This document shows positions 1-26,628 of a DNA stretch of 32,715 bases, piece after piece. The stretch lies in assembly GCA_963662265.2 (NCBI GenBank), contig CAXXHA010000038.1, forward strand, positions 1 to 32,715. The letters are read 5' to 3'. Made by a program: the position numbers and the translations under genes. This DNA comes from Spirochaetia bacterium. Lineage in GTDB: Bacteria; Spirochaetota; Spirochaetia; CADAEX01. Each line of letters starts with the position of its first letter. The first letter of the stretch is position 1. The notes under the pieces were generated by a model. That model made no database searches and was not told the DNA's origin. It saw only the letters and a list, made by a program, of their open reading frames with translations.

Positions 1-1201
1 AATGACAGGTCTGGAAATCAGATAATTCCGGGGGCAACTCATGAAAGCGGGGAATTCAGGGAGATTACGCCGGGATTCATGCCGGGGCAGGATTTCAGGA
101 CCGGAAGGCAGTTTATCCCTGACAGCAGCGGAACAGGAATGATGAGAAACAACAGGGCTGTAAGGCAGTATATGCAGAACCGGCTCAACACAATGCTGCC
201 TGAACAGTTTATTATCAGGCCTGTGATAGCAGACAGGCAGGTTAAGGCTTTTGTCAAGGTTAAATCGCTGAAACTGAAATTCTACAGCAATGCAAACAGG
301 CGTTTTATTAATTCCATAATCATAACAGTACTTGCGGGAACTCTCGCGGCGCTTGTAATTGCAGTCTTCTCATCATGGTTTATATCAAACAAGCTGACCC
401 GCGATGCTGCAGCCCTCTCAACAGGGCTTAACCGCCTTGCCGGCGGGAGAAGAGATGTAATATTTCCGGATAAAGGCTCGGAGGAAATACTATCAATCTC
501 AGAAAGCGCAGCTGTCCTCCAGAAGGAACTAATACATGACGAGGAAAGGAGAAAACAGTGGGCCCAGGATATTGCGCATGACCTTCGGACCCCGATAACA
601 GCTGTAAAAGCCCAGGTTGAAGCTCTGAAAGACGGAGTATTCAAACCGGATTCTGAAAGATTCAGCAAGGTACTGAAGGAACTCGGGCATCTTGAAACAC
701 TTGTGGAAGACTATGAACAGCCTCAGCAAAATAGAATCAGAGCAGAACAGTCTCAATATTTCCCCGGTCAGCACATTGGATATAAAGGGAATTCTGAAAG
801 AAAGGTTTGACCTGCTTGCTGAGGAGAAGAAAATAGATTTCATTTTAGAGGCAGAAAATTTTTCAGTTGAATGCGACCTGCACCTCCTGATAAGGGCGCT
901 CAGTAACCTTGCCCAGAACAGCATAAATTATTCAGCTGCTGATTCATCTGTAAAAGTCAACATGCTTAAAAAGGAAGATTCTGCTGTTTTCATTTTTGAA
1001 AACCCGGGTAACATTGAAGAAACAGAGATTGAAAAAATCTTTGACCGGCTTTACAGGGGAGAGACAGGAAGGAGTTCAGAAGGCTCGGGACTGGGCCTTA
1101 CTATTGCATCTGCTATTATCCGGAGGCATGGCGGCGGAATTGCGGCTGAAAACAGGGGAAAAAGTATTATATTCACTGTCAGCATACCCATCAGGCTATG
1201 A
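1..1201 (+). pseudogene. Two-component sensor histidine kinase (TM-HAMP-HisKA-HATPase, BaeS-like); 5'-partial and split by a frameshift near 712
   Basis: Frame 1 is open from base 1 and has a TM helix, HAMP and the H-box IAHDLRTP. ORF 692-1201 carries the N-box (LSNLAQNSINY), F-box (IFDRLYRG) and G2 (GSGLGL). Removing one base at GAC-T-ATG (709-715) joins the frames. May be a sequencing error. Confidence 0.8.
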
Positions 1202-1903: not shown

Positions 1904-3457
1904 ATGAGTGACTCAATTCCTTCCAAACATTATAGACGTAAACTTCAGGAACTGTCTCTGCTGTTCGACATAAGCCAGTTTCTTCAGGAATCTGAAGACA
2001 TACAGACTGCTCTTTCCCCGATAATCAGACACACAATAAAATCAATGGAAATGTATCAGGGTGTAATAACACTTCTCAACAGGCAGACAGGAGAAATTTC
2101 AATTGACGCTTCCTACGGAATTGCAGAAGACCATGCGGAAAAAGTCAAATTCCAGGTAGGAGAAGGAATAACAGGAACTGTAATCAAAACCGGTGAAAAA
2201 ATCACCATAGAAGATGTAACTAAGGATCCCAGATTTCTGGATAAAACACGGTCAAAAAAAAGATGGAGCAACCACTCATTTATCTGTGTTCCTATAAAAA
2301 TAGGTACAGAAACAATAGGTACCATAAGCGCGCAGAGAAAAAGAACATCTGATCTTGTTCTTGAGGAAGATGCGAAACTTCTTTCTATAATTGGATCACT
2401 GATAGCGTTATCTGTACAGCTGAGAAGATCCTCCCAGGAGAAACAGGAGGAACTGAAGAGTGAAAACTTAAGGCTTCAGAATGAACTCAAGAGTAAATTC
2501 ACCCCGAAAAACATTATTGGAAGTTCTACTGCAATGCAGGAGGTATTTGATCTTATTGCCCAGGTATCAAAGAGCGAGGCAACAGTCCTTATCAGAGGGG
2601 AATCAGGAACAGGTAAGGAACTCATTGCCCATTCAATACACTACAACAGCATGAGAAGCGATAAACCGTTTATCAAGGTAAACTGTGCAGCCCTTCCGGA
2701 AACAATAATTGAAAGCGAACTTTTCGGACATGAAAAAGGCGCATTTACAAGTGCGATTGCTGCAAGAAAAGGAAGATTTGAGCTTGCAAACGGAGGGACA
2801 ATTTTTCTCGATGAAATAGGCGACCTTTCCCCGACAACCCAGGTAAAACTACTCAGGGTTCTCCAGGAAAAGGAATTTGAAAGGGTCGGGGGAACTGAAA
2901 CAATCAAGACAAATGTCAGGATTGTCGCTGCAACAAACAGGGACCTTGAAGCATTGATGATTGAAAACAAATTCAGGGAAGACCTATATTACAGGCTCAA
3001 TGTATTCCCGGTACATGTCCCCCCCCTGAGAGACAGGAAAAGCGATATAATGCTTCTTGCAGACTACTTCACAGAAAAATACAGCAAAAGAAACGGTAAA
3101 GATATAAAAAGGATATCAACACCGGCAATTCAGCTGCTTACAAGCTACCACTGGCCCGGTAATGTAAGGGAACTTGAAAACTGCATAGAAAGAGCTGTAC
3201 TTCTTAGCTATGATGAAGTTATTCATGGGAATCTGCTCCCCCCCAGTCTTCAGAGTGCAGAATCCACAGGAACAGAAATAGACAACACGCTTCAGCAGGC
3301 TCTTGATAACCTGGAGAAAGAACTGATCATGGACGCGCTTAAATCTGCAAAAGGCAATCTTACCAAGGCTTCCAAAATTCTTGGAATAAGTGAAAGAATT
3401 ATAGGACTGCGGAAGAAAAAGTATAAAATTAAACCTGAAAAATTCAAATCATCATAG
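1904..3457 (+). CDS. NifA-like sigma54-dependent activator (GAF-AAA+-Fis HTH)
   Basis: N-terminal GAF domain, Walker A GESGTGKE, ESELFGHEKGAFTSA, Walker B FLDEIG, WPGNVREL and a C-terminal HTH. Confidence 0.92.
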   Translation: MSDSIPSKHYRRKLQELSLLFDISQFLQESEDIQTALSPIIRHTIKSMEMYQGVITLLNRQTGEISIDASYGIAEDHAEKVKFQVGEGITGTVIKTGEKITIEDVTKDPRFLDKTRSKKRWSNHSFICVPIKIGTETIGTISAQRKRTSDLVLEEDAKLLSIIGSLIALSVQLRRSSQEKQEELKSENLRLQNELKSKFTPKNIIGSSTAMQEVFDLIAQVSKSEATVLIRGESGTGKELIAHSIHYNSMRSDKPFIKVNCAALPETIIESELFGHEKGAFTSAIAARKGRFELANGGTIFLDEIGDLSPTTQVKLLRVLQEKEFERVGGTETIKTNVRIVAATNRDLEALMIENKFREDLYYRLNVFPVHVPPLRDRKSDIMLLADYFTEKYSKRNGKDIKRISTPAIQLLTSYHWPGNVRELENCIERAVLLSYDEVIHGNLLPPSLQSAESTGTEIDNTLQQALDNLEKELIMDALKSAKGNLTKASKILGISERIIGLRKKKYKIKPEKFKSS

Positions 3458-3459
3458 TG

Positions 3460-3502
3460 TTACAATTATGTAGGATTTAGACCATATACTACATAATTGT
3501 AG
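3460..3502. promoter_or_regulatory. Paired upstream activator sites (TACA-N4-TGTAG twice)
   Basis: TTACAATTATGTAG (3460-3473) and CTACATAATTGTAG (3489-3502). Together they form a perfect 13-bp inverted repeat 110-150 bp upstream of the sigma54 promoter. Confidence 0.7.
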
Positions 3503-3611
3503 TATCAAGCTTTATCATCAGGGACTACTGAAATAACACTGCTTCAAATGAATTATTCTATTTCCTTATAAACTAAGTATTTAAAAATATTTCTCGCTAT
3601 CAATTTATTTT

Positions 3612-3627
3612 TGGCACAACAATTGCA
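3612..3627 (+). promoter_or_regulatory. sigma54 (-24/-12) promoter of glutamine synthetase
   Basis: TGGCAC-AACAA-TTGCA is an exact consensus match. RBS AGGAGG at 3652-3657. Confidence 0.9.
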
Positions 3628-3668
3628 TTTAGTAAATTATATATATCCATCAGGAGGTCATAGTAACA

Positions 3669-5798
3669 ATGGATGAAAATATTATTGATTTTAAAAAAAC
3701 ACCGCTCCCTGAAATTTACGGCGTAAACTGCTTTAACGATGCATTAATGAGAGAGCGTCTTCCAAAGAGTATTTACAAAGAACTCAAGGAAGTACAGAAA
3801 GGTAAAAAGGAACTATCACTCGAAATCGCGGAAGTTGTTGCCAGTACAATGAAAGACTGGGCAATAGAAAACGGAGCAACGCATTTCACTCACTGGTTCC
3901 AGCCAATGACCGGCCTGACTGCTGAAAAACATGACTCATTTATAAACCCGACACCTGACGGAAAAGTTATACTTGAATTCTCAGGAAAAGAGCTTATTAA
4001 AGGGGAACCTGATGCATCTTCATTTCCGAGCGGGGGATTAAGAGTTACATTCGAGGCAAGGGGATATACTGCATGGGACACAACTTCACCTGCTTTCCTG
4101 ATGAAAGACAATACAGGTGTTACTCTTAAAATTCCAACAGCATTTTTCTCCTATACCGGTGAAGCGCTTGATAAAAAAGTACCGCTCCTCAGATCAATGG
4201 AAACAATAAACAAAGAGTCACTGAGACTCCTGAGAGCTATAGGAAATACAACATCAGCAAGAGTTGACTCCACAGCAGGAGCTGAACAGGAATATTTCCT
4301 CATTGACAGCAGCTTTATGGAATCAAGGCCGGACCTTCTTCTTGCGGGAAGAACACTTTTCGGTGCAAAACCTGCAAAGGGACAGGAAATGGAAGATCAC
4401 TATTTCGGTTCCATAAAACTCAGAGTTGCAGATTTCATGAGAGAACTGAACTGCGAATTATGGAAACTCGGTATAAGCGCAAAAACACAGCATAATGAGG
4501 TCGCCCCGAATCAGTTTGAACTTGCACCGATTTTTACAACAGTGAATGTTGCAACAGATACAAACCAGCTTACAATGGAAGTGCTTCAGAAAGTAGCAAG
4601 CAGACACGGTCTTGTAGCGCTGCTTCACGAAAAACCATTTGCAGGAGTAAACGGTTCAGGAAAACACAACAACTGGTCTCTCTCAACAGACGACGGAATC
4701 AACCTGCTTGAGCCGGGTGATGATCCAAAATCAAATATGCAGTTTCTCCTGGTTGTATCTGCTATTATAAGAGCTGTGGACAAGTATGCCACATTACTGA
4801 GATTTTCCGCAGCAAATGCAGGAAATGACCACAGACTTGGAGCAAACGAAGCGCCTCCGGCTATTATTTCAATATTCCTCGGAGAGGAACTCACAGATAT
4901 TTTTGAAAAAATGGCAGAGGGCAAACTTTCAGAATCATCAGGCGGCGGATTAATGGAACTGGGAATCAGTTCTCTTCCAAAACTGCCTAAAGATTCAACA
5001 GACAGAAACAGGACATCGCCGTTTGCATTTACAGGAAATAAATTCGAGTTCAGAATGGTACCTTCATCTGCATCAATAGCAATGCCGAACACTGTACTCA
5101 ACACTGTGGTGGCAGAGATTTTCAGCGAAATTTCAGAGAGGCTTGAAAAATCAGATGATATAAACAAAACTGCCAGGGAAGTAATCACTGAATTCTATAC
5201 AAATCACAAGAGGATTATTTTCAACGGCAACGGATATTCTGAAGAATGGATTAAGGAGGCTGAAAAAAGAGGTCTTCCAAACCTGAAATCAACAGTTGAT
5301 TCAATCCCTGAAATAGAAAAACCTGAAGCTGTAAAACTTTTTACAAAACACAGTGTTTTTTCAAAAGAGGAGCTGGAATCAAGATGTACAATATATCTTG
5401 AAAAATACAGCAAGCAGATCAATATTGAAGCGGGAATCATGATAGATATGACAAGAAAAAGCATAATACCTGCCATAATTGAGTATATGGATACAATTGC
5501 AACATCTATTTCTTCATTGAAAGATGCGGGAGTCAAGGCGCCTGTCACAGCACAGAGCAAACTGCTTGAATACCTGCTTGAAAATTTCAACGGACTTTCT
5601 GAATCTGTTGATGAACTTGAAATAAAGCTGAAAAAAGCTCAGGATATTATAAACACTGAAAAACAGGCAAGATGCTATCATGATGATGTTTTCCCGGCAA
5701 TGGAAAAACTCAGATCCTACAGTGATGCTCTTGAAGAAAAAACAGACCTTGATATATGGCCTTTTGCAAGTTATCAGGATCTTTTATTTAAAATATAA
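3669..5798 (+). CDS. glnA: Glutamine synthetase type III
   Basis: 709 aa with GSIII motifs HWFQPMTGLTAEKHDSF, EPDASSFPSGG, HEKPFAGVNGSGKHNNWS and DRNRTSPFAFTGNKFEFR. Confidence 0.96.
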   Translation: MDENIIDFKKTPLPEIYGVNCFNDALMRERLPKSIYKELKEVQKGKKELSLEIAEVVASTMKDWAIENGATHFTHWFQPMTGLTAEKHDSFINPTPDGKVILEFSGKELIKGEPDASSFPSGGLRVTFEARGYTAWDTTSPAFLMKDNTGVTLKIPTAFFSYTGEALDKKVPLLRSMETINKESLRLLRAIGNTTSARVDSTAGAEQEYFLIDSSFMESRPDLLLAGRTLFGAKPAKGQEMEDHYFGSIKLRVADFMRELNCELWKLGISAKTQHNEVAPNQFELAPIFTTVNVATDTNQLTMEVLQKVASRHGLVALLHEKPFAGVNGSGKHNNWSLSTDDGINLLEPGDDPKSNMQFLLVVSAIIRAVDKYATLLRFSAANAGNDHRLGANEAPPAIISIFLGEELTDIFEKMAEGKLSESSGGGLMELGISSLPKLPKDSTDRNRTSPFAFTGNKFEFRMVPSSASIAMPNTVLNTVVAEIFSEISERLEKSDDINKTAREVITEFYTNHKRIIFNGNGYSEEWIKEAEKRGLPNLKSTVDSIPEIEKPEAVKLFTKHSVFSKEELESRCTIYLEKYSKQINIEAGIMIDMTRKSIIPAIIEYMDTIATSISSLKDAGVKAPVTAQSKLLEYLLENFNGLSESVDELEIKLKKAQDIINTEKQARCYHDDVFPAMEKLRSYSDALEEKTDLDIWPFASYQDLLFKI

Positions 5799-8966: not shown

Positions 8967-9605
8967 TTGATTCCTGATTCCCGAAAATTAAAGCAAGATA
9001 TCTATATGCACCTGGCAAGGATTGGTAAGGCATTATCAAGTCCGGGGCGTCTTCACCTGATTGACCTTTTGTGCGAAGGATCAAAAACAGTTGAACACCT
9101 GGCAGAAGAAACAGGAATGAATTATGCTAATACTTCACGTCATCTTCAAACCTTACTTGAAGCAAGGCTGGTCGGTTTTGAGAAAAAAGGGCTATATTCC
9201 TATTACCAGATTACAGATCCCCTGGTTGAATACATGTTCCAGACAATGCAGGAACTTGGAGAAAAACTGATAAAAGATATAAAAGAACTTGTTGAAGATA
9301 TTTACGGCAAAGACAGCAAAATAGAACATGTAGGCTGCAAAGAGCTTGTAAAGCGAATGCAAAGCGGTAAAGTTACACTGATTGATGTCAGGCCGAAACA
9401 GGAATATGACAAAGATCATCTTCCAGGCGCCAGTTCTATTCCTCTTGAAGAGCTGGAAGAACATTTATCTTCTCTTTCTCCTGACCAGGAGATAATAGCC
9501 TACTGCAGAGGAAGATATTGTCTGTTATCGGTCGAGGCTGTATCAGTTCTCAAGGCAAATGGTTATCATGCAGTTCGCCTTGATGACCGGTGCCTCCCTG
9601 AATAA
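8967..9605 (+). CDS. ArsR/SmtB-family regulator fused to a rhodanese domain
   Basis: KALSSPGRLHLIDLL...TSRHLQTL winged HTH, followed by LIDVRP..EY...HLPGA and the active-site loop AYCRGRYC. TTG start with an AGGAG RBS. Confidence 0.92.
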   Translation: MIPDSRKLKQDIYMHLARIGKALSSPGRLHLIDLLCEGSKTVEHLAEETGMNYANTSRHLQTLLEARLVGFEKKGLYSYYQITDPLVEYMFQTMQELGEKLIKDIKELVEDIYGKDSKIEHVGCKELVKRMQSGKVTLIDVRPKQEYDKDHLPGASSIPLEELEEHLSSLSPDQEIIAYCRGRYCLLSVEAVSVLKANGYHAVRLDDRCLPE

Positions 9606-9815
9606 CCGCATAAATTCCATGATTATCTAAAACCGGGTTGTTATATTTACAACCTGCACATCTTCCACTTCCCCCATATATTAAACAGTCAAAAGAAAAA
9701 TTTCATATAGTCTGTTTTCAAAACTGCAAATAACGTTTAAAACCCTCTGTTCAACCTGATCACAAGATATTTACATTTCATTAATAAATAATTGATATAT
9801 TTTTATCTAAATTAC

Positions 9816-9875
9816 TTGATTATTCAATTGAATAGTTGTATACAGTATTAAATAATTCAATTGAATAGTAGAATA
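9816..9875 (+). promoter_or_regulatory. Promoter of the Fe-S operon with two tandem operator palindromes
   Basis: TATTCAATTGAATA (9821-9834, perfect palindrome) and ATTCAATTGAAT (9855-9866). The first lies between TTGATT and TATACA (17-bp spacing). Confidence 0.7.
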
Positions 9876-9923
9876 CTACAAGTCAATCAGACTGTCTGAA
9901 AACTTAAATGAGGTGGCTTAAAT

Positions 9924-10403
9924 ATGCAGACAATGCTGGAATTTACAAAAGAACAAATTCTTCAGGTTGATGAATTAATCGACAAATTCGGTATGCACCC
10001 CAGCGGACTGATTCCGTTACTGGAAAAAGTCCAGGAAGTCCTGGGATATTTACCGCTAAGTATCCAGGATTACATTTCTGAAAAAACAGGATTTTCTCCC
10101 AACAGGATTTACGGTGTTGTAACTTTTTACTCTTTCTTTTCCATGGAACCAAGAGCCAGGCACAGGGTCCAGCTATGCCTGGGAACAGCCTGCTATGTAA
10201 AAGGGGCTGATGTTATACAGGCAAAAATTGAAAAAGACTACCAGATTACACTCGGGGAAAGCACAGAAGACGGAAGATTTACATTTGAAAAGGCAAGATG
10301 CGTTGGTGCCTGCGGCCTGGCTCCTGTAATGATTGTAGACGGGAAAGTCTTCGGCAAAGTGACTGCTGATGCAGTTGATGAAATCCTTGCACAGTATGAA
10401 TAG
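9924..10403 (+). CDS. NuoE/HydC/HndA-like [2Fe-2S] subunit
   Basis: YGVVTFYSFF, CLGTACYVKG and CVGACGLAP give four [2Fe-2S] Cys ligands. Confidence 0.93.
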   Translation: MQTMLEFTKEQILQVDELIDKFGMHPSGLIPLLEKVQEVLGYLPLSIQDYISEKTGFSPNRIYGVVTFYSFFSMEPRARHRVQLCLGTACYVKGADVIQAKIEKDYQITLGESTEDGRFTFEKARCVGACGLAPVMIVDGKVFGKVTADAVDEILAQYE

Positions 10404-10416
10404 GAAGGGGAGAAAA

Positions 10417-12132
10417 ATGAAAACAACTGAAGATATTAACCTCATCCGTCAGGAAATGAATAGCAATGAGGCAGATAAAACATACCTTTATGTACATATG
10501 GGGACATGCGGTATTGCATCCGGTGCAATGGGTGTACTTGCCGCATTAAAAAACAGGATTAAAGAAGAAAATGCATCAAAAAATATCCAGATTATTACTA
10601 CAGGATGTGCAGGGATATGCTCCCAGGAACCACTGCTTACAGTAAAAACACCCGGTACAGAACCTGTTATATATAAACAGATGAATGAAGAAAAAGCCCT
10701 CACTGTTTACGATAAACATGTGAAAGGCAATACAGCTGTGGAAGAATATGCCCTTGCGAGGGGAATGGAATTCCAGATTAAAGAGAGAATCAGGGCAAAA
10801 GGGAAGCTTCCTGATGAAAGCGTTATCTCAACATCGATTCCAGGCATTGAAGAACTTCCCTTCTTTTCTCTTCAGGAGTCCCGTGTCATGCGGAACCGCG
10901 GACTCATAGACCCGGGAAAGATCAGAAACTATATAGGCAGAGACGGATACCAGGGAGTTATAAGGGCTCTTACCAAATTGTCTTCAGAACAGATCATCGA
11001 CGAAGTAGTAAACTCGGGTCTCAGAGGAAGGGGCGGAGCTGGTTTTCCTATCGGATTAAAATGGAAATTAACCCACTCAGAAAAAAGCGATATCAAATAT
11101 ATGCTCTGTAATGCTGATGAAGGGGATCCCGGAGCCTATATGGACCGTAATGTCATGGAAAGCGATCCCCACAGCCTTATCGAAGGGATGATAATCGGCG
11201 CAAAAGCGATTGGAGCAAGTCAGGGTTATATTTACTGCAGAGCCGAATACCCCCTGGCAATCGAAACTCTCAACAAAGCAATAAAACAGGCAAAGTCATT
11301 AAACCTTCTTGGAGAGAATATTCTCGGAACAGACTTCTCTTTCGATATAGAAGTATATGAAGGGGCAGGAGCTTTTGTCTGCGGAGAAGAAACTGCCTTG
11401 ATGAGATCTATTGAAGGGAAAAGGGGAAACCCGAGACCTAAACCGCCGTTTCCGGCAAAAGCAGGACTATGGGAAAAACCGACAGTTCTCAATAACGTGG
11501 AGACTCTGGCCAATATCCCCCAGATTATTGTCAGAGGATCAGAATGGTTTCGGGAAGTCGGGACATACAGGAGTCCTGGCACAAAAATTTTCTCCATAAC
11601 CGGAGATATTGAAAATGTGGGCTGTGTGGAAGTCCCCATCGGTACAACAATCAAAGAGATAGTAAATCAAATAGGTGTGGTGCTTGGGGATAAAAAGCTG
11701 AAAGCTGTTCAGCTTGGAGGACCTTCAGGAGGCTGTATTCCCAGGGAGTACATGGATGTTAAAGCTGACTATGAAACATTGCAGGAATACGGCGCTATTA
11801 TGGGATCAGGCGGCTTAATCGTCATGAGCGAAGATAAAACCGGCGTTGATATTGCAAAATTTTTCATGGAATTCTGCAAGGATGAAGCATGCGGAAAATG
11901 CCTCCCGGGAAGAGAAGGGACAAAACAGATGCTCCTGATACTCAATAAAATATCATCAGGAAATGGTTCTCTTGACGACATCAGTAAGCTTGAGGATTTA
12001 AGCGAAGTGATCCAGAATACCGCGCTCTGCGCATTATGCAAGACAGCGGTAAACCCTGTATTAAGCACCCTGAGATATTTCCGTGATGAATATGAAGAGG
12101 CTGTGAAAAGTAAAGTCGAAATGGGGGTATAA
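10417..12132 (+). CDS. NuoF/HydB/HndC-like FMN/NADH-binding subunit with an N-terminal thioredoxin-like Fe-S domain
   Basis: MGTCGIASGA...TGCAGIC..EP, SGLRGRGGAGFP, CNADEGDPG, GAGAFVCGEETAL, GGPSGGC and CGKC. Start placed at ATG 10417 after an RBS. Confidence 0.93.
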   Translation: MKTTEDINLIRQEMNSNEADKTYLYVHMGTCGIASGAMGVLAALKNRIKEENASKNIQIITTGCAGICSQEPLLTVKTPGTEPVIYKQMNEEKALTVYDKHVKGNTAVEEYALARGMEFQIKERIRAKGKLPDESVISTSIPGIEELPFFSLQESRVMRNRGLIDPGKIRNYIGRDGYQGVIRALTKLSSEQIIDEVVNSGLRGRGGAGFPIGLKWKLTHSEKSDIKYMLCNADEGDPGAYMDRNVMESDPHSLIEGMIIGAKAIGASQGYIYCRAEYPLAIETLNKAIKQAKSLNLLGENILGTDFSFDIEVYEGAGAFVCGEETALMRSIEGKRGNPRPKPPFPAKAGLWEKPTVLNNVETLANIPQIIVRGSEWFREVGTYRSPGTKIFSITGDIENVGCVEVPIGTTIKEIVNQIGVVLGDKKLKAVQLGGPSGGCIPREYMDVKADYETLQEYGAIMGSGGLIVMSEDKTGVDIAKFFMEFCKDEACGKCLPGREGTKQMLLILNKISSGNGSLDDISKLEDLSEVIQNTALCALCKTAVNPVLSTLRYFRDEYEEAVKSKVEMGV

Positions 12133-12134
12133 GA

Positions 12135-12614
12135 ATGATTTTTACGAAAGCTCTTACTTATGATGAAATTAAACAAAAACTTGACAAGGATGATGTCATA
12201 TCGATAATAGGCTGCTCCTCCTGTGCAAGAGTGGCAGGAACAGGCGGCGAAGAACAGATGGAAGATCTTGCCAAGAATCTTCGTAAAGACGGCTATAACG
12301 TTCAGGAGGGATTTTCCATCAATACTGTCTGCACGCCAAAAGTCTTTCAGGCCAGATTAAACAGAAAAGTAAACACAATAATTACGATGGCCTGCTCTGC
12401 CGGCTTTGCAAATGTATCCAGTATTTTTGCAGACAAGAAAATTATCACATCAAGTGATGATATCGGGCTTATGGCCGCTGATATAAAAAATGAAACTATT
12501 CATGTAGCTGTACCGTTTGAAAAACACAAAGAAACAAAAGGTGAAAAATTCAAGATGTATTCCGGTGAAGCATTGAACGAGGCTTCTGTAAAGAAAAACA
12601 GGGAGGATCAATAA
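12135..12614 (+). CDS. Cys-containing protein resembling the N-terminal domain of MetV (MTHFR small subunit)
   Basis: Pattern MIFTK...EI...ISIIGCSSC....GTGGEEQME.L...L...G...TVC...MACSAG, recognised by eye as MetV-like. Confidence 0.6.
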   Translation: MIFTKALTYDEIKQKLDKDDVISIIGCSSCARVAGTGGEEQMEDLAKNLRKDGYNVQEGFSINTVCTPKVFQARLNRKVNTIITMACSAGFANVSSIFADKKIITSSDDIGLMAADIKNETIHVAVPFEKHKETKGEKFKMYSGEALNEASVKKNREDQ

Positions 12615-13828
12615 TGATTATATCTCTCAGAAATTTAACTTATTCAGATCTTAAAAAGGAATTGACCAGGGAAAACAGAATTGTTCTTTACAGCTGCAAT
12701 GCCTGTGTAAAAGCATGCGGTATCGGGGGGCTTGAAATGATGAAGCGCCTTGAAAAGGCTTTGAAATCAGACGGTTACAACGTAATCGGAAAAGATCTGA
12801 TAAGCATGGGATGCTCCACCAACCTGATTGAAAAGAGAAAACTTGAAATTGAGAAAAAAGCTATGTATGAAGAGGCTGATGTTATTATTCCGCTTATCTG
12901 TGAAGATGGATATGAGGGAATCACAGAGACATTCAGCGATAAAAAAGTGATATCTACAGCCAGAACTCTTGGTGTCGGAGCCTTCACCGCGGACAGGGGA
13001 ACTGTTCTCACAACTCCTTTTGAAAGCACAGGACTGGAAGCAAAGGCTGAAGGTTATACACTTTCAGAAGTAATAGAAAAGCTTGATCTTCCCAATGGTT
13101 TCTTTGACGAGGAAGATGATAAGGATATTCAACCTGAATATATCAACATAACAATAAACGGGGAGAGTATTAAGGCATGTAAGAATCAGAACCTGATGGA
13201 AGTGTGCAGGGAAAACAGCATTGATATTCCCCTCCTCTGCCACCATGATGATCTGGACAGTTACGGAGCCTGCCGCATGTGCGTTGTCAGGATTGAAGGA
13301 TTCAAGGGGCTATCTGCAGCCTGCTGTGTGAAAGTAACTGATGGTATGAATATTGTGACCAGCGATGAAAAGCTTGAAAGTTACAGAAAGATATTGCTTG
13401 AACTTGCAATATCATCGGGCGATCACGACTGCCTGACCTGTTCAAAGGGTGTCCCCACCCCTTTTGCCTCATGTGAACTGCAGGCCCTGGTCAGACAATA
13501 CGGTATTACAGAGAGCCGGTATAAGAAGGACAATGAAATAAAAACTGAAGATAATTCAAGTCCTGTAATATATCATGATCCCGGTAAATGTATACTTTGC
13601 GGAAGATGCGTTAGGGCATGTGAAGAGATTGCCGGGCTTTGCAACCTCGGTTTTGTAAAGCGGGGAGAAAAAACAACAGTTGTTGCAGGTCTTAACAAAG
13701 AAATAAAACAGAGCGCCTGTGTTTCCTGCATGGCCTGTACAGATGCCTGCCCTACCGGAGCATTATGCGAAAAAGTTGTTCATTTCACAGGAGAAAACTG
13801 GGAACCTGCGAGGGTTCTTGGAGTGTAA
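12614..13828 (+). CDS. Fusion of a MetV-like Cys domain with the NuoG/HydA/FdhA-type N-terminal Fe-S module; no catalytic domain
   Basis: N-terminal SCNACVKACGIGG...GC...LICEDG. Then IPLLC, GACRMC, AACC ([2Fe-2S]); HDCLTC...CELQ; CILCGRCVRAC and CVSCMACTDACP (2x[4Fe-4S]). Stop codon follows shortly after. Confidence 0.8.
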   Translation: MIISLRNLTYSDLKKELTRENRIVLYSCNACVKACGIGGLEMMKRLEKALKSDGYNVIGKDLISMGCSTNLIEKRKLEIEKKAMYEEADVIIPLICEDGYEGITETFSDKKVISTARTLGVGAFTADRGTVLTTPFESTGLEAKAEGYTLSEVIEKLDLPNGFFDEEDDKDIQPEYINITINGESIKACKNQNLMEVCRENSIDIPLLCHHDDLDSYGACRMCVVRIEGFKGLSAACCVKVTDGMNIVTSDEKLESYRKILLELAISSGDHDCLTCSKGVPTPFASCELQALVRQYGITESRYKKDNEIKTEDNSSPVIYHDPGKCILCGRCVRACEEIAGLCNLGFVKRGEKTTVVAGLNKEIKQSACVSCMACTDACPTGALCEKVVHFTGENWEPARVLGV

Positions 13829-13985: not shown

Positions 13986-14273
13986 TTCTATGATTTCAGG
14001 CAGACAGTTACCGGGATAATATATAACAGCCAGCATGCAAACCACAAGTTAAACTAAGTCAGTTTATATTTTCCCTTACCGCAGTTCCTGGAGGATAATA
14101 CCGGAGTTGCAGTTTAGATAGTAACCTGCTTGAACTCTTTGAAAAGACCTCATCATTGTTTTCAGATAAATCAGGAAATATTTCATATTTTTCAAAATTA
14201 TATAATCAATATTGCATATCTATTTCATACTACATACAATTATTTATAAAATAAAAATTTGATTAAAAGGAAT

Positions 14274-14924
14274 ATGATTATGCATCTGCCTGTAGAAATT
14301 CTCGGGACACTATCATCAGTAATAGTGGCAGTTTCCCTTACACAGAAAAACATCAAACTTCTCAGAATTCTCAACCTGATAGGAGCATCAGGATTTGCTT
14401 TTTACGGATACCTGATAAATTCACTGCCGGTGCTCGGCCTTAACGGCTTTATTGCGGTTATTGATCTTTATTACTACTGGTCAATGATCAGGTATAAATC
14501 ATATTTCGACCAGCTTGAAATTGGAAAACCGGAAACTTCCCCTTATCTCAGGAAATTCCTTTATTTTCATATTAACGATATTAAACTTTTCCAGCCTTCG
14601 TTTGACCCTGAAAAAATATCCGGATGCTACGGGATTTATATATTGAGAGATATGCAGCCTGCCTCTGTACTGCTTTTCAGGGAACAGCAGCAGGGAAAAA
14701 TTGAAATGGTTCTTGATTATGCGGTACCGGCATACAGAGACTACAAGAACGGAGAATATTTTTTCAGAGAAGCTGTAAACACAGACCGAAGCAGAAATAT
14801 TCAGGAAATCACAGCATTTTCAGAAACAAAAAAACACTCAGAATACCTCGAACGCCTGGGCTTTATAAAAGAGACAGAAAAAGAGGGGGGTATTATTTAC
14901 AGGCTTGAGTTATTAAATAAATAA
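14274..14924 (+). CDS. Membrane protein with a YgjV-like N-terminus and a soluble, possibly GNAT-like, C-terminus
   Basis: Three hydrophobic helices with LRILNLIG; C-terminal LDYAVPAYRDYKNG and YLERLGF. Start codon uncertain (14259, 14274 or 14280). Confidence 0.6.
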   Translation: MIMHLPVEILGTLSSVIVAVSLTQKNIKLLRILNLIGASGFAFYGYLINSLPVLGLNGFIAVIDLYYYWSMIRYKSYFDQLEIGKPETSPYLRKFLYFHINDIKLFQPSFDPEKISGCYGIYILRDMQPASVLLFREQQQGKIEMVLDYAVPAYRDYKNGEYFFREAVNTDRSRNIQEITAFSETKKHSEYLERLGFIKETEKEGGIIYRLELLNK

Positions 14925-21900: not shown

Positions 21901-22578
21901 TTAATCATTATTTATTTTATTCAGATACCTGTAAATCGTAGGCTCGGAACATCCCAGCTGCTTTGCAGCTTCCCGGACAGCCCCTTTCATCATGAAAATA
22001 TTCTTCTGATTTAATAGTTCCACTATATTCAGCCTGTCATCCTGGGTAAGACGTTCTTTTGTAATATTATTATCAGAAAGATAATTCTTTATAACACCAT
22101 CTGCTTCTTCAGTTACGGAATCATAAAATATTTCTCCTGCATTATTCATAAGAGTATCAACAGAATCATATGAACTGTTAATCTCGACAAGCTGATCAGG
22201 ATGGCAGAGTTTCAGAATATTCTTACTTAGTTCCTTATAACGCCTGTCATCAAAATTAATACAGAGCATGCCAACTATATTTTTGTCATCATCCTTGATA
22301 TACATTGTTGATGAACGGAGTATTCTGTGATCCTTGGAGATACCATTGTAGTTAACTTTAAAATCCTGATCCTTATAACTTTCATCTGATATTACTTCAA
22401 GAGCGAAATTTGTAAGAGGTCCCCCGACCTGACGCTGGCTGACATGACCGTTTGCTATAGCTACGATTGAGTTTATATGATCCTCAGTATCATGCAGAAC
22501 AACTTCATAATCAGGCCCGAGAGTTTTTCCTAGAAATTCAACAACAATACTGTATTTTTTCTTTAAATCTTCATTCAT
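21901..22578 (-). CDS. YheO/DauR-like PAS-HTH transcriptional regulator
   Basis: EVVLHD, SIVAIANGHVSQRQVGGP, LRSST, GMLCINFD and the C-terminal F.MKGAV...A..LGCSEPTIYRYL. Confidence 0.9.
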   Translation of the reverse strand: MNEDLKKKYSIVVEFLGKTLGPDYEVVLHDTEDHINSIVAIANGHVSQRQVGGPLTNFALEVISDESYKDQDFKVNYNGISKDHRILRSSTMYIKDDDKNIVGMLCINFDDRRYKELSKNILKLCHPDQLVEINSSYDSVDTLMNNAGEIFYDSVTEEADGVIKNYLSDNNITKERLTQDDRLNIVELLNQKNIFMMKGAVREAAKQLGCSEPTIYRYLNKINND

Positions 22579-22701
22579 TTATTTATTCCGCCTGTTTAAA
22601 CTTATATACAGGATTACAAGTTAATACTGTTTCAACCTGCAAAGCAAGCTGCGTTTAACACCTGAATCATAATAATCCCTACAGGTGTTAAACCCTTTCA
22701 G

Positions 22702-22720
22702 TGATAATAAAATATTATCA
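22702..22720. promoter_or_regulatory. Palindromic operator TGATAAT-N5-ATTATCA upstream of the YheO-like gene
   Basis: TGATAATAAAATATTATCA; related copies lie upstream of ridA. Confidence 0.6.
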
Positions 22721-22954
22721 GCATGATATTCAAGTTTAATTTATTTCTTCTTATAATTTACCTGACTGATTCAGGAAACACTTTATTGTAATATTTTTTC
22801 TGCAGATAATAAAATCCCATAATTCAGAAAATTACAGGATTCACAACTGACAATATATATTTTTCTTATATTGCAGCCTGCTGAATACAGGCTGTCTATT
22901 ATATTATATCTGCCAGGATTCATACTCCGGGCAGAATTATTCATTTCAGCAGAA

Positions 22955-24304
22955 TCAGCCGATACCGCCGTAAATTATTCCGAGGATATAAACAATAATT
23001 GTTGCTCCGCAGAAAACATATTTTGTCATAGGCTCAAACCATTTTCCGATTTTCTTTTCACGACCTGTCTGTGCCTGTTCTCGTGCAAAACCTTTACCGC
23101 ATACCCAGAAAAACATGATTCCGGCAAGAAGAGCTCCAAGAGGGATTATATAGATTGATACAATATCCATCCATGTGCCGAGGGCTGCTCCGTTTTCAAG
23201 AACAAGTCCCACAGAAGCACTTACTGCAGCAACAATTGCAATAGAAACACCTCTTGAAAGCTTGAATCTCTGCTGAATCGCTTCTACAGGAGTTTCAAGA
23301 AGGTTCATAAGAGAACTAACCCCGGCAAAAAGAACTGCAACAAAGAATACAATTGAAAACAGGTACCCTGCAGGCATCATTTTAAAAACATTTGGCATTG
23401 TTATAAACATGAGAGGAGGACCTGCTGTAAGATCAAGACCGAAAACAAATACTGCAGGTATAATTACAACTGCAGCAAGAAGAGCTGCTATTGTATCATA
23501 TATTGCTACATTTTTTGCACAGCTGATTACATCTTCCGATTTCTTAAGATATGATCCATATACAACAGTCCCGGAACCGGCAAGTGAGAGTGAAAAGAAA
23601 GCCTGCCCCAGTGCATACACCCATGTTTTGGGACTTGCAAGAAGGTTCCACTTGGGAACAAAAAGATACTTGTACCCTTCCATTGAACCGGGAAGTGTAA
23701 GCACTCTTACAGCAAGGATAAGGAAAAGTATAAAAAAAGCAGGCATCATAACTTTGTTTACTTTTTCAATACCTTTTGCAATACCCATCATCATAATTAT
23801 AAAAGTTATTGCAAGACCAAGCATATGCCAGCTCACACTTCCGAGAGGACCTGCGATCTGCCCGAAATAAGCGCCGCTGTTCTCTGCCCTGATAACAGCA
23901 CCTGTAATTGAACCGACAGTAAACCTGAGTATCCATCCGACAACTACAGCATATCCTATTGCAATACCAAGTGATCCTATTACAGGAACAAGACCCAGCA
24001 GCTCGCCGTTCTTTTTACCCCGTCTTTCAAAGGCTTTTTTAAAAGCACCAAGAGGACCTGTCTGCATTGCACGTCCGAAAGACATTTCCCCGATAACACC
24101 TGATATTCCGATAAGTATAATAAAAAAGAAATAGGGAATTAGAAAAGCAGCTCCGCCGAACTGTCCCAGCCTGTATGGAAAAAGCCAGATATTAGCCATC
24201 CCTACTGCTGAACCTATACATGCAAGAATAAATCCGATTTTTGAATTAAAATTATCTCTGTTTTCTAGAGTAGTTTCTGTGAAGTTAGTATTTTTATCAG
24301 ACAC
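22955..24304 (-). CDS. Sodium-dependent amino-acid transporter, NSS (SLC6/TnaT-like) family
   Basis: GFILACIGSAVGMANIWLFPY, GGAAFLIPY and ALGQAFFSLS; many TM helices. Confidence 0.93.
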   Translation of the reverse strand: MSDKNTNFTETTLENRDNFNSKIGFILACIGSAVGMANIWLFPYRLGQFGGAAFLIPYFFFIILIGISGVIGEMSFGRAMQTGPLGAFKKAFERRGKKNGELLGLVPVIGSLGIAIGYAVVVGWILRFTVGSITGAVIRAENSGAYFGQIAGPLGSVSWHMLGLAITFIIMMMGIAKGIEKVNKVMMPAFFILFLILAVRVLTLPGSMEGYKYLFVPKWNLLASPKTWVYALGQAFFSLSLAGSGTVVYGSYLKKSEDVISCAKNVAIYDTIAALLAAVVIIPAVFVFGLDLTAGPPLMFITMPNVFKMMPAGYLFSIVFFVAVLFAGVSSLMNLLETPVEAIQQRFKLSRGVSIAIVAAVSASVGLVLENGAALGTWMDIVSIYIIPLGALLAGIMFFWVCGKGFAREQAQTGREKKIGKWFEPMTKYVFCGATIIVYILGIIYGGIG

Positions 24305-24681
24305 AACCTGACTCCTTATTTGTAATTCCGAAATTGATACAGACTGTTTTGCTGCATTTTAAAGCACTGCAGGTATAACAGCATCATGCTCCGGACACAG
24401 GTATCTCCACAATTCAAAATATGAAAAAAATAAGGAGAAATTCATGAAGAAACCTGTAATTTATTTATTTATTTAGACCGGCACCGATTTACCGGTATTT
24501 TCCGTACTGCTGTCAGCTGCCGGCCTCAATACAATCCTCCATAAATAGACAATAACGGGAGGACAGCATCAACTGTATCAGATACTGCTGAAAAACATTC
24601 TGCTTTCACATGTATCCTGATCCCCATCCGCCAAGCCCCGGGGCAGATATCCCTTCCGGCCGGCATAAAACATCCAGTTTT

Positions 24682-24716
24682 TAAAATACCTGCACCCTGT
24701 AGAAGAATGCAGGTAT
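24682..24716 (-). terminator. Hairpin after the lyase gene
   Basis: ATACCTGCA...TGCAGGTAT 9-bp stem immediately after the stop, with a short T run on the minus strand. Confidence 0.55.
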
Positions 24717-24721
24717 CAATA

Positions 24722-26104
24722 TTATTTCAACGGTTCAAGAAAAGCCTGAAAATGTCTGAGAACCGGTGGTTCCCATGTAATTCTGTAACCTTTCACATCT
24801 GCTGCTCTTTTCTTGATTTCAATAAGAGCATCAGCCATAACATCTATATGAGCCTGAGTATAAACTCGTCTTGGAATTGCAAGTCTTGTAAACTCAAACT
24901 TTGCATGAAGCTGCTCACCTGTATCAGGATCATTACCAAGCATGTAAGATCCGATATCACATGTTCTGATGCCAGCTTCCTTGTAAAGCTCTATTGCAAG
25001 TGCCTGGCCTGGAAATTCGTTGTAAGGAATATGAGGGAACATAGCTTTCGCATCAACAAATACCCCGTGCCCACCTACTGGTGACTGGTATGCAATACCT
25101 GCATCATCAAGCCTGGCAGCAAGATATTCCATCTGGCCGATTCTGTATCTCAGGTAGTTTTCATCAAGACCTTCGTAAAGACCTATTGAAAGCGCTTCAA
25201 GATCTCTTCCGGCAAGTCCTCCGTATGTTGTAAAACCTTCAAAGGAAATTGTTCTTCCCTTAAGAGCCCTGAAAAGTTCTTCATCATCTTTAATACCGAG
25301 AAGACCTCCCATATTTACGATAGTGTCTTTTTTTGCACTCATGGTAAACATATCAGCATAGCTGAAAAGCTCTGTGATAATCTCTTTGATTGATTTATCA
25401 GCATATCCTTCTTCTCTCTGTTTGATGAAGAAAGCATTTTCTGCATATCTTGCAGCATCAATATTCATTTTAATGCCGTATTTTTTACAAATTGCAGCTG
25501 TTTCCCTTACATTCTGCATTGAAACAGGCTGTCCTCCTGCAGAGTTGTTTGTAACAGTAACAATTACAAGTGCAACATTTTCAGGACCATGTTTTTTGAT
25601 AAGTTCTTCAAGTTTAACATTATCCATATTACCTTTAAATGGAGCTCTTTTTGCAGGATCTCCTGCTTCAGGAACTACACAGTCAATTGCTCTTGCGCCT
25701 GAAAGTTCAACATGAGCTCTTGTTGTGTCAAAGTGCATGTTGGAAATAGAATACTTGCCTTCACCCATAACTGCGCCGAAAAGAACTTTTTCAGCAGCTC
25801 TTCCCTGGTGAACCGGCTGAATATATTTATATCCAGTAATATCCTGTGCAGCTTCGAGAAGTTTGAAATAACTTGAAGCACCTGCATATGCCTCATCACC
25901 TCTCATAACACCAGCCCACTGTTCCTGGCTCATGGCATTTGTTCCGCTGTCAGTAAGAAGGTCAATATAAACATCCTCACCCTTAAGGTTGAACATGTTA
26001 TACTTAGCCTCAGCTATTTTCTGTTCTCTTTCCTCTCTTGTAAGCATCTTAATGGTTTCAACCATCTTGATTCTGAAAGGCTCCGGTACATACTTGATTC
26101 CCAT
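24722..26104 (-). CDS. tnaA: PLP-dependent beta-eliminating lyase, tryptophanase-like
   Basis: [26 protein letters not shown] and [13 protein letters not shown]-Lys motif SAKKD and C-terminal LRHF match tryptophanase; tyrosine phenol-lyase has SGKKD and LRFF. Confidence 0.75.
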
Positions 26105-26244
26105 AAAATAACCTCCTGGTCTTCTTTGTGATCTGCTCAGAACACACCTCGCACAGGATCATTAAAAAAGACCATCAAAAGGTGTAAGCAAATCGATTAT
26201 ATTTAAAATGAAATAATTTATTAAAAAAACAGATTAACAATCTG

Positions 26245-26628
26245 TTACTTTTTAAAAGCTATAGCCTCAATTTCAACAAGTGCATCTTTGGGAAGTCTTG
26301 CAACTTCTACAGCACTTCTCGCAGGATAATTGCTGTCTCCGAACATTTCTTTGTAGATCTCATTCATATCAGCAAAATTATTCATATCGCTTAAAAACAC
26401 TGTTGTCTTTAAAACATCATCAAGAGACAATCCATTTGATGCCAGAATTGCCTTGAGGTTTTCAAGAGACTGGCGTGTCTGTCCTTTTACACCGCCTTCC
26501 GCAAATTCACCTTTTGATGGATCTATAGGAAGCTGACCTGAAACAAAAACAAGCCCGGCTGCTTCTGTTCCCTGTGAATAAGGCCCTATTGCAGCAGGTG
26601 CCTTATCTGTTGATATTATTTTTTTCAT
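26245..26628 (-). CDS. ridA: RidA enamine/imine deaminase
   Basis: [15 protein letters not shown] and [23 protein letters not shown] with the catalytic Arg. Confidence 0.95.

Follow-up and report, generated by a model that had tools for sequence, protein, structure and literature searches.

A conserved operon joining a NuoEF/Bfu-type flavo-iron-sulfur module to a pair of MetV-N-type domains

Modular enzymes of the NuoEF/Bfu type, which combine flavin and iron-sulfur (Fe-S) subunits, are central to anaerobic energy metabolism, and 18 of 57 Bfu clades were still listed as uncharacterised in a survey that collected the family with four domains, including the ferredoxin-type domain IPR017896 (PMC9304861). 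Here, we describe an operon from a Spirochaetia bacterium (assembly GCA_963662265.2, contig CAXXHA010000038.1), located in a stretch of 32,715 nt (positions 1 to 32,715 of the forward strand; hereafter, the window), in which a cassette of four genes joins NuoE- and NuoF-like subunits to 2 domains related to the N-terminal part of MetV. Judged from its sequence, the product of the operon is a soluble iron-sulfur flavoprotein of four subunits. We regard the cassette as a conserved, modular flavo-Fe-S enzyme of the NuoEF/Bfu type to which a new output module has been added, namely the pair of MetV-N-type domains, which is also found free-standing in archaea.

Each of the closest described systems shares a part of this architecture. 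With BfuABC/HydABC, of which the closest solved representative is NiFe-HydABCSL of Acetomicrobium mobile (PDB 7T2R/7T30), the cassette has in common a NuoE-like C subunit, a B subunit composed of an N-terminal thioredoxin-like domain, a flavin mononucleotide (FMN) site, an SLBB domain and a 4Fe-4S domain, and the wire of 2Fe-2S and 4Fe-4S clusters with which the A subunit starts. By contrast, the B subunit of the cassette is devoid of the ferredoxin-like C-terminal domain carrying clusters B3 and B4, its wire protein stops after the wire and instead begins with a MetV-N-type domain, a fourth subunit consists of another such domain, and hydrogenase, pterin and Nfn-type modules are absent. The cassette falls outside the collection criteria of the Bfu survey for want of the ferredoxin-type domain in its B subunit, and a term search of the main text of that survey did not retrieve MetV, lipo or Hox (PMC9304861). 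The HoxEFU diaphorase shares the three-part NAD(P)H module, and HoxU likewise ends after its Fe-S clusters, but the cassette scores below the equivalog cut-offs, is not accompanied by HoxYH genes and carries the 2 additional MetV-N-type domains. With MetV, the small subunit of MetVF-type methylene-tetrahydrofolate reductases, the cassette domains share the N-terminal approximately 115 residues, four Cys (CxxC...C...C) and an M-I-x-T start, and a NuoF-like NADH subunit is also coupled with MetV in RnfC2-MetVF of Acetobacterium woodii (PMC8760232). Unlike MetV, however, the cassette proteins have neither PF12225 (the "methylene-tetrahydrofolate reductase C terminal" family, which corresponds to the MetV C-domain) nor a metF partner gene, and they comprise 2 paralogous copies instead of one.

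We tentatively propose, with a probability of roughly 0.4, that the cassette encodes an enzyme that uses NAD(P)H to reduce a disulfide or persulfide. The architecture and the MetV-N-type pair are much more secure than the identity of the acceptor, and we hold them with good confidence.

Gene order and the electron-input module

Five genes on the + strand lie in series, with the gene for an ArsR-rhodanese fusion protein (8967–9605) separated by 318 nt from four packed genes (9924–13828), the intergenic spacings of which are 13, 2, and −1 nt, the 1-nt overlap reading TAATG. The four genes encode a thioredoxin-like [2Fe-2S] subunit of 159 residues resembling NuoE, HoxE and BfuC (9924–10403), an NAD(P)H- and FMN-binding subunit of 571 residues resembling NuoF, HoxF and BfuB (10417–12132), a free-standing MetV-N-type domain protein of 159 residues (12135–12614; hereafter, the free subunit) and a 404-residue protein (12614–13828), in which an N-terminal MetV-N-type domain (12614–13126; hereafter, the fused domain) precedes a wire of the type found in HoxU and the N-terminal part of NuoG (residues 177 to 404, 13142–13828). 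The longest open reading frame for the NuoF-like subunit runs from 10369, and the ATG at 10417 yields 571 residues, matching the 570 to 576 residues of the homologs. The open reading frames read directly and the Pfam and NCBIfam matches agree with the initial annotation of this DNA, which had described four tightly coupled genes for a NuoE-like, a NuoF-like, a 159-residue Cys and a 404-residue protein; it had started at 8967 and thus included a fifth gene, encoding the fusion of an ArsR-type helix-turn-helix (HTH) with a rhodanese domain, without describing it. Its statement that no metF, hydrogenase, fdh or hdr gene is present also holds, with none of the methylene-tetrahydrofolate reductase (MTHFR), hydrogenase, molybdopterin and Hdr families detected among the 24 open reading frames of the window that were scanned.

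The four-gene order recurs in all 10 loci first surveyed as well as in further loci, which excludes a chance arrangement, and is kept in every fetched locus as far as the contig extends. The genomes concerned are labelled as Spirochaetales, Eubacteriaceae, Tissierellales, Peptostreptococcaceae, Lachnospiraceae, Peptococcia, other Clostridia and, in the case of one metagenome-assembled genome (MAG), Planctomycetota. Two loci contain irregular copies: the NuoF-like gene is split in L108 (7780–9496), and several cassette genes are broken in L118 (6195–11223), possibly as a result of frameshifts, decay or assembly errors.

The NuoE-like subunit corresponds to 2Fe-2S_thioredx (PF01257, E = 9.9e-47) and is matched by the NCBIfam models for HoxE (NF005747, 154.6 versus a cut-off of 224) and NuoE under their cut-offs. 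In the NuoF-like subunit, Complex1_51K (PF01512), SLBB (PF10531) and NADH_4Fe-4S (PF10589) domains are present together with a weak PF01257 match at residues 18 to 95, representing the thioredoxin-like domain at the N-terminus, and the model for NuoF of complex I (TIGR01959) scores 483 versus a cut-off of 558.65. The wire consists of Fer2_4, NADH-G_4Fe-4S_3 and 2x4Fe-4S domains; its best NCBIfam model is HoxU (NF005745, E = 5.5e-53, 179.8 versus a cut-off of 333), whereas the NuoG model TIGR01973 scores 157 versus 470 and covers only model positions 1 to 213 of 606. One 2Fe-2S motif and three 4Fe-4S motifs are recognizable by their ligands, all of which are invariant among homologs of the 404-residue protein (C209/C220/C223/C237, H271/C273/C276/C287, C326/C329/C332/C336, and C369/C372/C375/C379), and the wire ends in a conserved tail, E386 to W396, of which W396 is invariant. 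All equivalog models (HoxE, HoxU, NuoE, NuoF and NuoG) score below their curated cut-offs. The cassette differs from NuoEFG of complex I in having neither an equivalog-level match nor a full-length NuoG with its molybdopterin-like domain, and from HoxEFU in having no equivalog-level HoxE or HoxU match and no adjacent hoxYH in the window. That the wire protein stops before any catalytic domain is as the initial annotation observed, but this is not the unusual feature it was taken for, since such an end is normal for HoxU.

The cassette could encode a HoxEFU-type diaphorase that serves a hydrogenase or formate dehydrogenase whose genes lie elsewhere, the Cys domains acting as adaptors; this would be in line with HoxE and HoxU being the best NCBIfam rows for 2 of the subunits and with the four [FeFe]-hydrogenase large-subunit matches in the genome (3.77 Mb, 90.6% complete). 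One relative of the free subunit, the 252-residue metagenome protein P0223, a fusion of a MetV-N-type domain with a HycI-like hydrogenase maturation protease domain, also fits this scenario. However, apart from all Hox models scoring under their cut-offs, no adjacent hydrogenase or formate dehydrogenase gene turned up in the neighbourhoods scanned, and the genome holds five full NuoF-like genes (on contigs C1, C3, C15, C35, and C38), 2 of which, other than the one described here, are separated from a hydrogenase large-subunit match by 1.5 to 3 kb (C1 and C15). We therefore consider a diaphorase function very improbable.

The closest solved chain to the NuoF-like subunit is 7t2r_B (E = 9.1e-186; residues 23 to 566 align to 7 to 529 of 597) and that to the wire is 7t2r_A (E = 8.7e-41), both from the bifurcating NiFe-HydABCSL. 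By motif context, rather than by alignment to the T. maritima numbering, the NuoF-like subunit also contains GGPSG, the F in GAGAFVCGEE and A..M in PGAYMDR; GGPSG, an F near FMN and A/E..M near NADH have been put forward as marks of bifurcating beta subunits (Losey et al. 2020, PMC7311640). Furthermore, reduced ferredoxin can serve MetVF enzymes as an electron donor in vitro (PMC8760232). These properties would suit an NAD(P)H:ferredoxin or NAD(P)H:flavodoxin oxidoreductase, or a Bfu-like bifurcating or confurcating enzyme, in which the MetV-N-type pair provides a docking or relay site or a bifurcation arm. In Bfu enzymes, however, the low-potential path to ferredoxin passes through B3 and B4 of the ferredoxin-like domain of the B subunit, which is also part of the ferredoxin site (PMC12018979). 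This domain is missing here, because the alignment to 7t2r_B stops at position 529 of 597 and no Fer4 family of Pfam matches the 571-residue protein, which ends 5 residues past the aligned region; it is likewise absent from all cassette homologs, which have 570 to 576 residues. In addition, a role in ferredoxin reduction or bifurcation leaves unexplained the genomic linkage of the cassette either to genes for an AhpD-like protein, a lipoyl-type carrier and LplA or to the ArsR-rhodanese gene, as described below. We consider such a role less probable than disulfide or persulfide reduction.

The pair of MetV-N-type domains

Residues 1 to 150 of the 404-residue protein and the free subunit are paralogs (29% identity, E = 4e-21), as the initial annotation had proposed. 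Neither the free subunit nor residues 1 to 170 of the 404-residue protein matches any Pfam or NCBIfam model, even at E ≤ 10. In the family of the free subunit (40 homologs of 147 to 170 residues), C27, C30, C66, C87 and K102 are invariant; the invariant residues of the fused domain are C28, C31, C35, C67, C96 and K110. The 404-residue form is not truncated: 58 of the 61 proteins found to carry the fused domain in the range of 222 to 707 residues are 380 to 423 residues long and none is longer, the other three being 235 to 307 residues, including one whose gene is cut off by the end of its contig (L016). The longest protein among the best 150 of 405 matches to the family profile has 413 residues.

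The profile of the free-subunit family retrieved 405 proteins at E ≤ 1e-3, 77 of them at E ≤ 1e-10, from 1.84 billion representatives. Among the 18 matches of 200 to 255 residues that were scanned, all except P0223 carry PF12225 behind the matched first approximately 115 residues. When compared by hhalign with an alignment of 16 MetV proteins, the free-subunit family gave a probability of 99.5% (E = 2.2e-22) and the fused domain one of 98.9% (E = 1.5e-17), with MetV C27, C30, C66, and C92 aligning with four Cys of the domains from the window; the MetV C-domain holds eight further invariant Cys. PF12225 was detected neither on the free subunit nor on the 404-residue protein at E ≤ 10, and none was found in the genome. 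On these grounds, the two Cys domains and the N-terminal domain of MetV are homologs, which relates them to one half of MetV only, so the resemblance to MetV suggested at first holds for this domain and does not extend to the rest of the protein. A "DUF1847 domain-containing" label attached to one homolog, P0017, was dropped because a Pfam hmmscan at E ≤ 10 gave no such match.

This kinship raises the question of whether the cassette is the electron-input half of a methylene-tetrahydrofolate reductase, similar to RnfC2-MetVF of A. woodii, that docks on a MetF encoded elsewhere. Besides the homology itself, this assignment could invoke the precedent for a NuoF-like NADH subunit joined to MetV (PMC8760232) and the presence of a single MTHFR domain (PF02219) in the genome. 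Nevertheless, the half of MetV represented by PF12225 is missing, that MTHFR domain lies on another contig (C10) within a long, fused open frame of 618 residues, and the neighbourhoods that were scanned revealed no MTHFR gene next to the cassette. Docking on MetF is thus quite improbable compared with the reduction of a sulfur-sulfur bond.

We take each MetV-N-type domain to bind one Fe-S cluster, because four Cys are invariant in each and because approximately two 4Fe-4S clusters per MetV have been measured for MetVF (PMC8760232); alternatively, the Cys may hold zinc. No relative of known structure was recovered: the free-subunit profile had 0 matches to PDB sequences at E ≤ 10, one MetV (P0173) gave only a chance row (E = 0.13), and literature searches found no MetV structure. 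The AlphaFold2 model of the free subunit has a mean predicted local distance difference test (pLDDT) value of 85.9, and Foldseek found nothing in the PDB at E ≤ 0.001 (best E = 0.018). The VIA-align matches, with Z up to 10.5, span residues 1 to 111 and consist of lobes of periplasmic binding proteins and dehydrogenases, leaving residues 112 to 159 barely covered; kinship to these lobes was rejected, as they represent a common three-layer alpha/beta fold. In the ESM Atlas, only clusters of hypothetical proteins were matched. No family model, solved structure or publication was found for the Cys domain or for the overall architecture, although the supplements of PMC9304861 and PMC7311640 could list the clade; within this scope, the architecture does not appear among characterised ones. 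Of the three outcomes that would have refuted the initial annotation, namely a truncated protein, no match to MetV and a known architecture, none was observed.

Complex prediction supports binding of the free subunit to the 404-residue protein. Three runs scored 0.85, 0.85, and 0.83, against 0.06 for the best of 3 controls. The score mark was attained by 58 of 80 solved complexes as opposed to 2 of 110 mismatched pairs, counts that apply only roughly to the alignments used here. The three runs share at least 94% of the contacts, with a partner pLDDT of at least 88. In the predicted interface, the Cys loops of the free subunit (residues 66–69, 87–90, and 111–118) stand against loops 65–70, 96–102, and 118–126 of the fused domain, residues 370–373 of the 404-residue protein, adjoining the last 4Fe-4S motif of the wire, are placed nearby, and the tail of the wire (residues 386–401) forms an extra strand on strand 57–62 of the free subunit. 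The 2 MetV-N-type domains are thereby predicted to form a pseudo-twofold heterodimer with the Cys loops face to face, clamped by the C-terminal strand of the wire.

The pseudo-dimer, which had been proposed from sequence, gains additional support from archaea. In a Methanomassiliicoccus MAG, a gene of the free-subunit type (hhalign, 99.2%) is directly followed by a 165-residue gene of the fused-domain type, with no NuoEF nearby, and, of 51 genomes sampled from one archaeal order, 8 have both paralog types side by side in the absence of NuoEF, suggesting that the pair is a unit in its own right. At one of four archaeal pair loci, the gene for an MvhD + 2x4Fe-4S protein lies directly upstream (L128:5076–6092), an arrangement that would also suit a role in ferredoxin-linked electron transfer or bifurcation, whereas the other three have no redox neighbour. 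This MvhD/FlpD-type neighbourhood hints that the pair can accept different electron modules. In the same order, 38 of the 51 genomes have a match, mostly a single protein in a frame of approximately 230 to 430 residues of which the first approximately 108 match; these proteins may be archaeal MetV-like proteins.

Gene neighbourhoods and the proposed reaction

In mycobacteria, Lpd, a lipoyl protein and AhpD form a chain that acts as an NADH-dependent peroxidase. Some of the cassettes lie beside genes for an AhpD-like protein and a lipoyl-type carrier. After copies of the same contig were merged, 21 distinct loci were available, five of which (the window, L013, L014, L103, and L113; type A) have an ArsR-rhodanese ortholog directly upstream. 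Ten loci, all from Clostridia (L015, L017, L018, L019, L020, L022, L024, L107, L108, and L118; type B), contain genes for an AhpD-like protein, a lipoyl-type carrier and LplA within approximately 1.5 kb of the cassette. The flanks of the remaining six loci are too short for classification; every locus with sufficient flanking DNA belongs to one of the 2 types.

The type-B protein of the CMD family passes the AhpD core model TIGR00778 (45 to 58 bits versus 27.8) and has the CxxCxxxH motif, read as C-x-Y-C-I-V-x-H. The carrier is a biotin/lipoyl attachment domain of 79 to 93 residues with a conserved E-[SA]-[AG]-K-G, PF00364 matching four such proteins (from five loci, two of them identical), and the LplA passes TIGR00545 (370 versus 280). 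Prior to the discovery of these carriers of approximately 80 residues, K102 and K110 of the Cys domains had been considered as a target of LplA, a possibility that was then dropped. The three genes are arranged upstream on the same strand, divergently upstream, or, in the third arrangement, on both sides of the cassette or downstream of it on the opposite strand, so their linkage to the cassette has survived rearrangement. In the neighbourhoods that were scanned, genes for MTHFR, hydrogenase or formate dehydrogenase were not detected next to the cassette.

An ortholog of the AhpD-like protein was detected in 6 of the 400 Clostridia-class genomes scored, 5 of them besides that of the query. In 2 of these 5 (L138 and L139), the genes follow the order MarR, AhpD-like, lipoyl-Lpd fusion and LplA, with no cassette within 9 kb; the fusion proteins (566 and 582 residues) are composed of a lipoyl domain, Pyr_redox_2 and Pyr_redox_dim. 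The cassette thus occupies the slot of an Lpd-type lipoyl reductase. In a third genome, LplA-like and radical-SAM genes precede the AhpD-like gene, and nothing relevant was found beside the gene in the other 2. The clusters of L139 and L138 also include a gene for an Fe/Mn superoxide dismutase (L139:11607–12341) and adjoin a Sir2-family fragment (L138:12488–12949), respectively, both of which fit a role in oxidative stress.

The initial annotation had left open whether the output docks on an enzyme encoded elsewhere or is itself the catalytic site. Taken together, the neighbours speak against MetF as the partner and suggest lipoyl and sulfur redox instead. In the mechanism that we envisage, electrons would pass from NAD(P)H through FMN and the wire to the clusters of the MetV-N-type pair, which would serve as the output site beside the last 4Fe-4S motif of the wire and reduce a sulfur-sulfur bond by two one-electron steps. 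In the sister clade from Clostridia, the acceptor would be the dedicated lipoyl-type carrier, which would in turn reduce the CxxC motif of the AhpD-like protein, so that the cassette would do the job of the lipoyl-Lpd fusion of other Clostridia. In the clade of the window, the acceptor would be some disulfide or persulfide, possibly that of a housekeeping lipoyl protein, and the operon would be under the control of the ArsR-rhodanese repressor. Compared with the mycobacterial chain and the L138 and L139 clusters, the sister-clade cassette likewise stands beside an AhpD-core protein, a lipoyl-type carrier and LplA, but its reductase would be an Fe-S/FMN complex and not a flavin adenine dinucleotide/disulfide flavoprotein, and the window itself does not include the AhpD-like, carrier and LplA genes.

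In ferredoxin:thioredoxin reductase and HdrB, an S-S bond is reduced at an Fe-S cluster in two steps of one electron each. The likeness of the cassette to these enzymes is a functional analogy in terms of the chemistry proposed, and we do not claim membership in either group; the searches detected no sequence or fold likeness between them, and the cassette proteins have no CCG motifs.

Several observations weigh against a disulfide or persulfide reductase. Neither the lipoyl carrier nor a close ortholog of the AhpD-like protein was found in this genome or in 2 other type-A genomes searched; the lipoyl machinery found in this genome is a conventional cluster of E1, E2, E3 and LplA, present on contig C10 only, and the single CMD-family match, on contig C1, is distant. 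The acceptor in type-A genomes is, for this reason, a guess carried over from the sister clade. Even in type B, lipoylation as opposed to biotinylation of the carrier is indicated solely by the adjacent LplA, and its best NCBIfam rows include biotin carriers. Four of the 5 type-B genomes also encode a bona fide Lpd (TIGR01350 over the cut-off), which led us to reject the idea that the cassette substitutes for an absent Lpd. In the tree of the 404-residue proteins, types A and B fall on opposite sides of one branch (support 99/97), and since each context maps to one side of this split, each association may have arisen only once. MetV, the only studied relative, hands its electrons to a flavin in MetF rather than to a disulfide (PMC8760232), and the fold searches with the free subunit returned generic alpha/beta matches, the best being the periplasmic binding protein at Z = 10.5 (VIA-align), with no likeness to ferredoxin:thioredoxin reductase or Hdr. 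To these can be added the marks of bifurcating beta subunits in the NuoF-like protein, the four archaeal pair loci, which have no lipoyl or rhodanese neighbour, and the nature of the support for the mechanism, which comes from sequences and predicted models.

More specifically, the MetV-N-type pair could be a new Fe-S catalytic module that exchanges electrons with the dithiol/disulfide of lipoyl proteins, a notion that we regard as doubtful but of broad consequence. If it were true, NuoEF-type flavo-Fe-S complexes could act as lipoyl-protein reductases, providing an Fe-S route to reduced lipoyl proteins in parallel to the universal flavoprotein Lpd, as well as a new NAD(P)H-fed defence against thiol stress in strict anaerobes. 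By homology, the long-sought redox partner of the acetogen MetVF reductases would then be a lipoyl protein such as GcvH. A lipoic-acid-binding cofactor has been listed, as an idea only, among the alternative donors to MetVF, and lpdA was noted next to metVF, as were gcvH genes in the genome (PMC8760232); gcvH and lpdA lie in or beside the metVF cluster. The genomic tie between a domain shared with MetV and lipoyl proteins in an independent setting would thus offer a handle on the question of which reductant feeds MetVF.

The putative repressor and the remainder of the window

The protein encoded upstream of the cassette combines an HTH_5 domain (PF01022, residues 25 to 69, E = 4.3e-11) with a rhodanese domain (PF00581, residues 125 to 204, 56.1 bits versus 22.2) and passes the NCBIfam model for ArsR/SmtB metalloregulators (NF033788, 64.8 bits versus a cut-off of 55). 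The predicted active-site loop of the rhodanese domain, CRGRYC, is intact in the translation. Orthologs of 59% to 80% identity lie directly upstream of the cassette in the other four type-A loci. Between this gene and the cassette, a promoter-like site on the + strand (9816–9844) reads TTGATT, 17 nt and TATACA, with the spacer holding the palindrome ATTCAATTGAAT at 9822–9833 (candidate operator 1). A second copy of ATTCAATTGAAT follows 33 nt after the first, at 9855–9866 on the + strand (candidate operator 2), and this perfect 12-mer palindrome occurs in the whole 3.77-Mb genome only at these 2 sites. The same arrangement, with CTTG.., the conserved palindrome and a TATAAT-like hexamer, precedes nuoE in all five type-A loci.

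The fusion protein probably represses the operon through the two palindromes, with release by a thiol, persulfide or metalloid signal. ArsR-type repressors responding to sulfane sulfur have been documented, and the combination of ArsR with a rhodanese domain in which the CRGRYC loop is intact fits a sensor of this kind; a metalloid may be the signal instead. The sulfane-sulfur sensors of the ArsR/SmtB family (sHdrR, SoxR, BigR and SqrR type) share with the protein described here the HTH, the position upstream of the regulated genes and the palindromic promoter site, but in this case the HTH is fused to a whole rhodanese domain. No publication on an ArsR-rhodanese fusion was among the matches listed in the literature search. 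With its candidate operator, the fusion offers a simple system for the study of a sulfurtransferase-gated repressor.

Such a regulator would also suit a reductase of polysulfide, thiosulfate, selenite, tellurite or arsenate in which the MetV-N-type pair is catalytic and the ArsR-rhodanese protein senses metalloids or sulfane sulfur, a prospect consistent with the existence of sulfane-sulfur-responsive repressors of the ArsR type. Apart from NF033788, the regulator gives weak matches to the TsoR, BigR (E = 3e-5, 24 bits versus 155) and rhodanese selenoprotein models, and the AhpD-like neighbours match the arsenosugar-associated and selenoprotein AhpD families below threshold. Yet all of these family matches except NF033788 are under the cut-offs, the scanned neighbourhoods of the cassette contain no conserved gene for a transporter, ArsB/Acr3, ArsC or a sulfur carrier, and the type-B context points to a protein-bound dithiol, which makes a chalcogen or metalloid substrate unlikely and is more in keeping with the reduction of a protein disulfide or persulfide.

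Directly downstream of the operon, a gene on the + strand (14259–14924) encodes a 221-residue protein that has no Pfam or NCBIfam match and appears hydrophobic in its N-terminal third; no blastp match to it (E ≤ 1e-5) was found beside the cassette in other loci. A histidine kinase at the start of the window (1–1201, + strand) is apparently split, with HisKA in an open reading frame ending at 810 and HATPase_c in one from 692 to 1201, and the overlapping frames could stem from a frameshift or a sequencing error, or mark a pseudogene. At 1904–5798 (+ strand), the gene for a type III glutamine synthetase follows that for a sigma-54 activator containing a GAF domain, and the two probably form a nitrogen-control unit. 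Finally, on the − strand (21901–26628), genes for a YheO-like PAS/HTH regulator, an SNF-family sodium symporter, a beta-eliminating lyase of the tryptophanase/tyrosine phenol-lyase type and a RidA-family protein make up a probable unit for amino-acid degradation.

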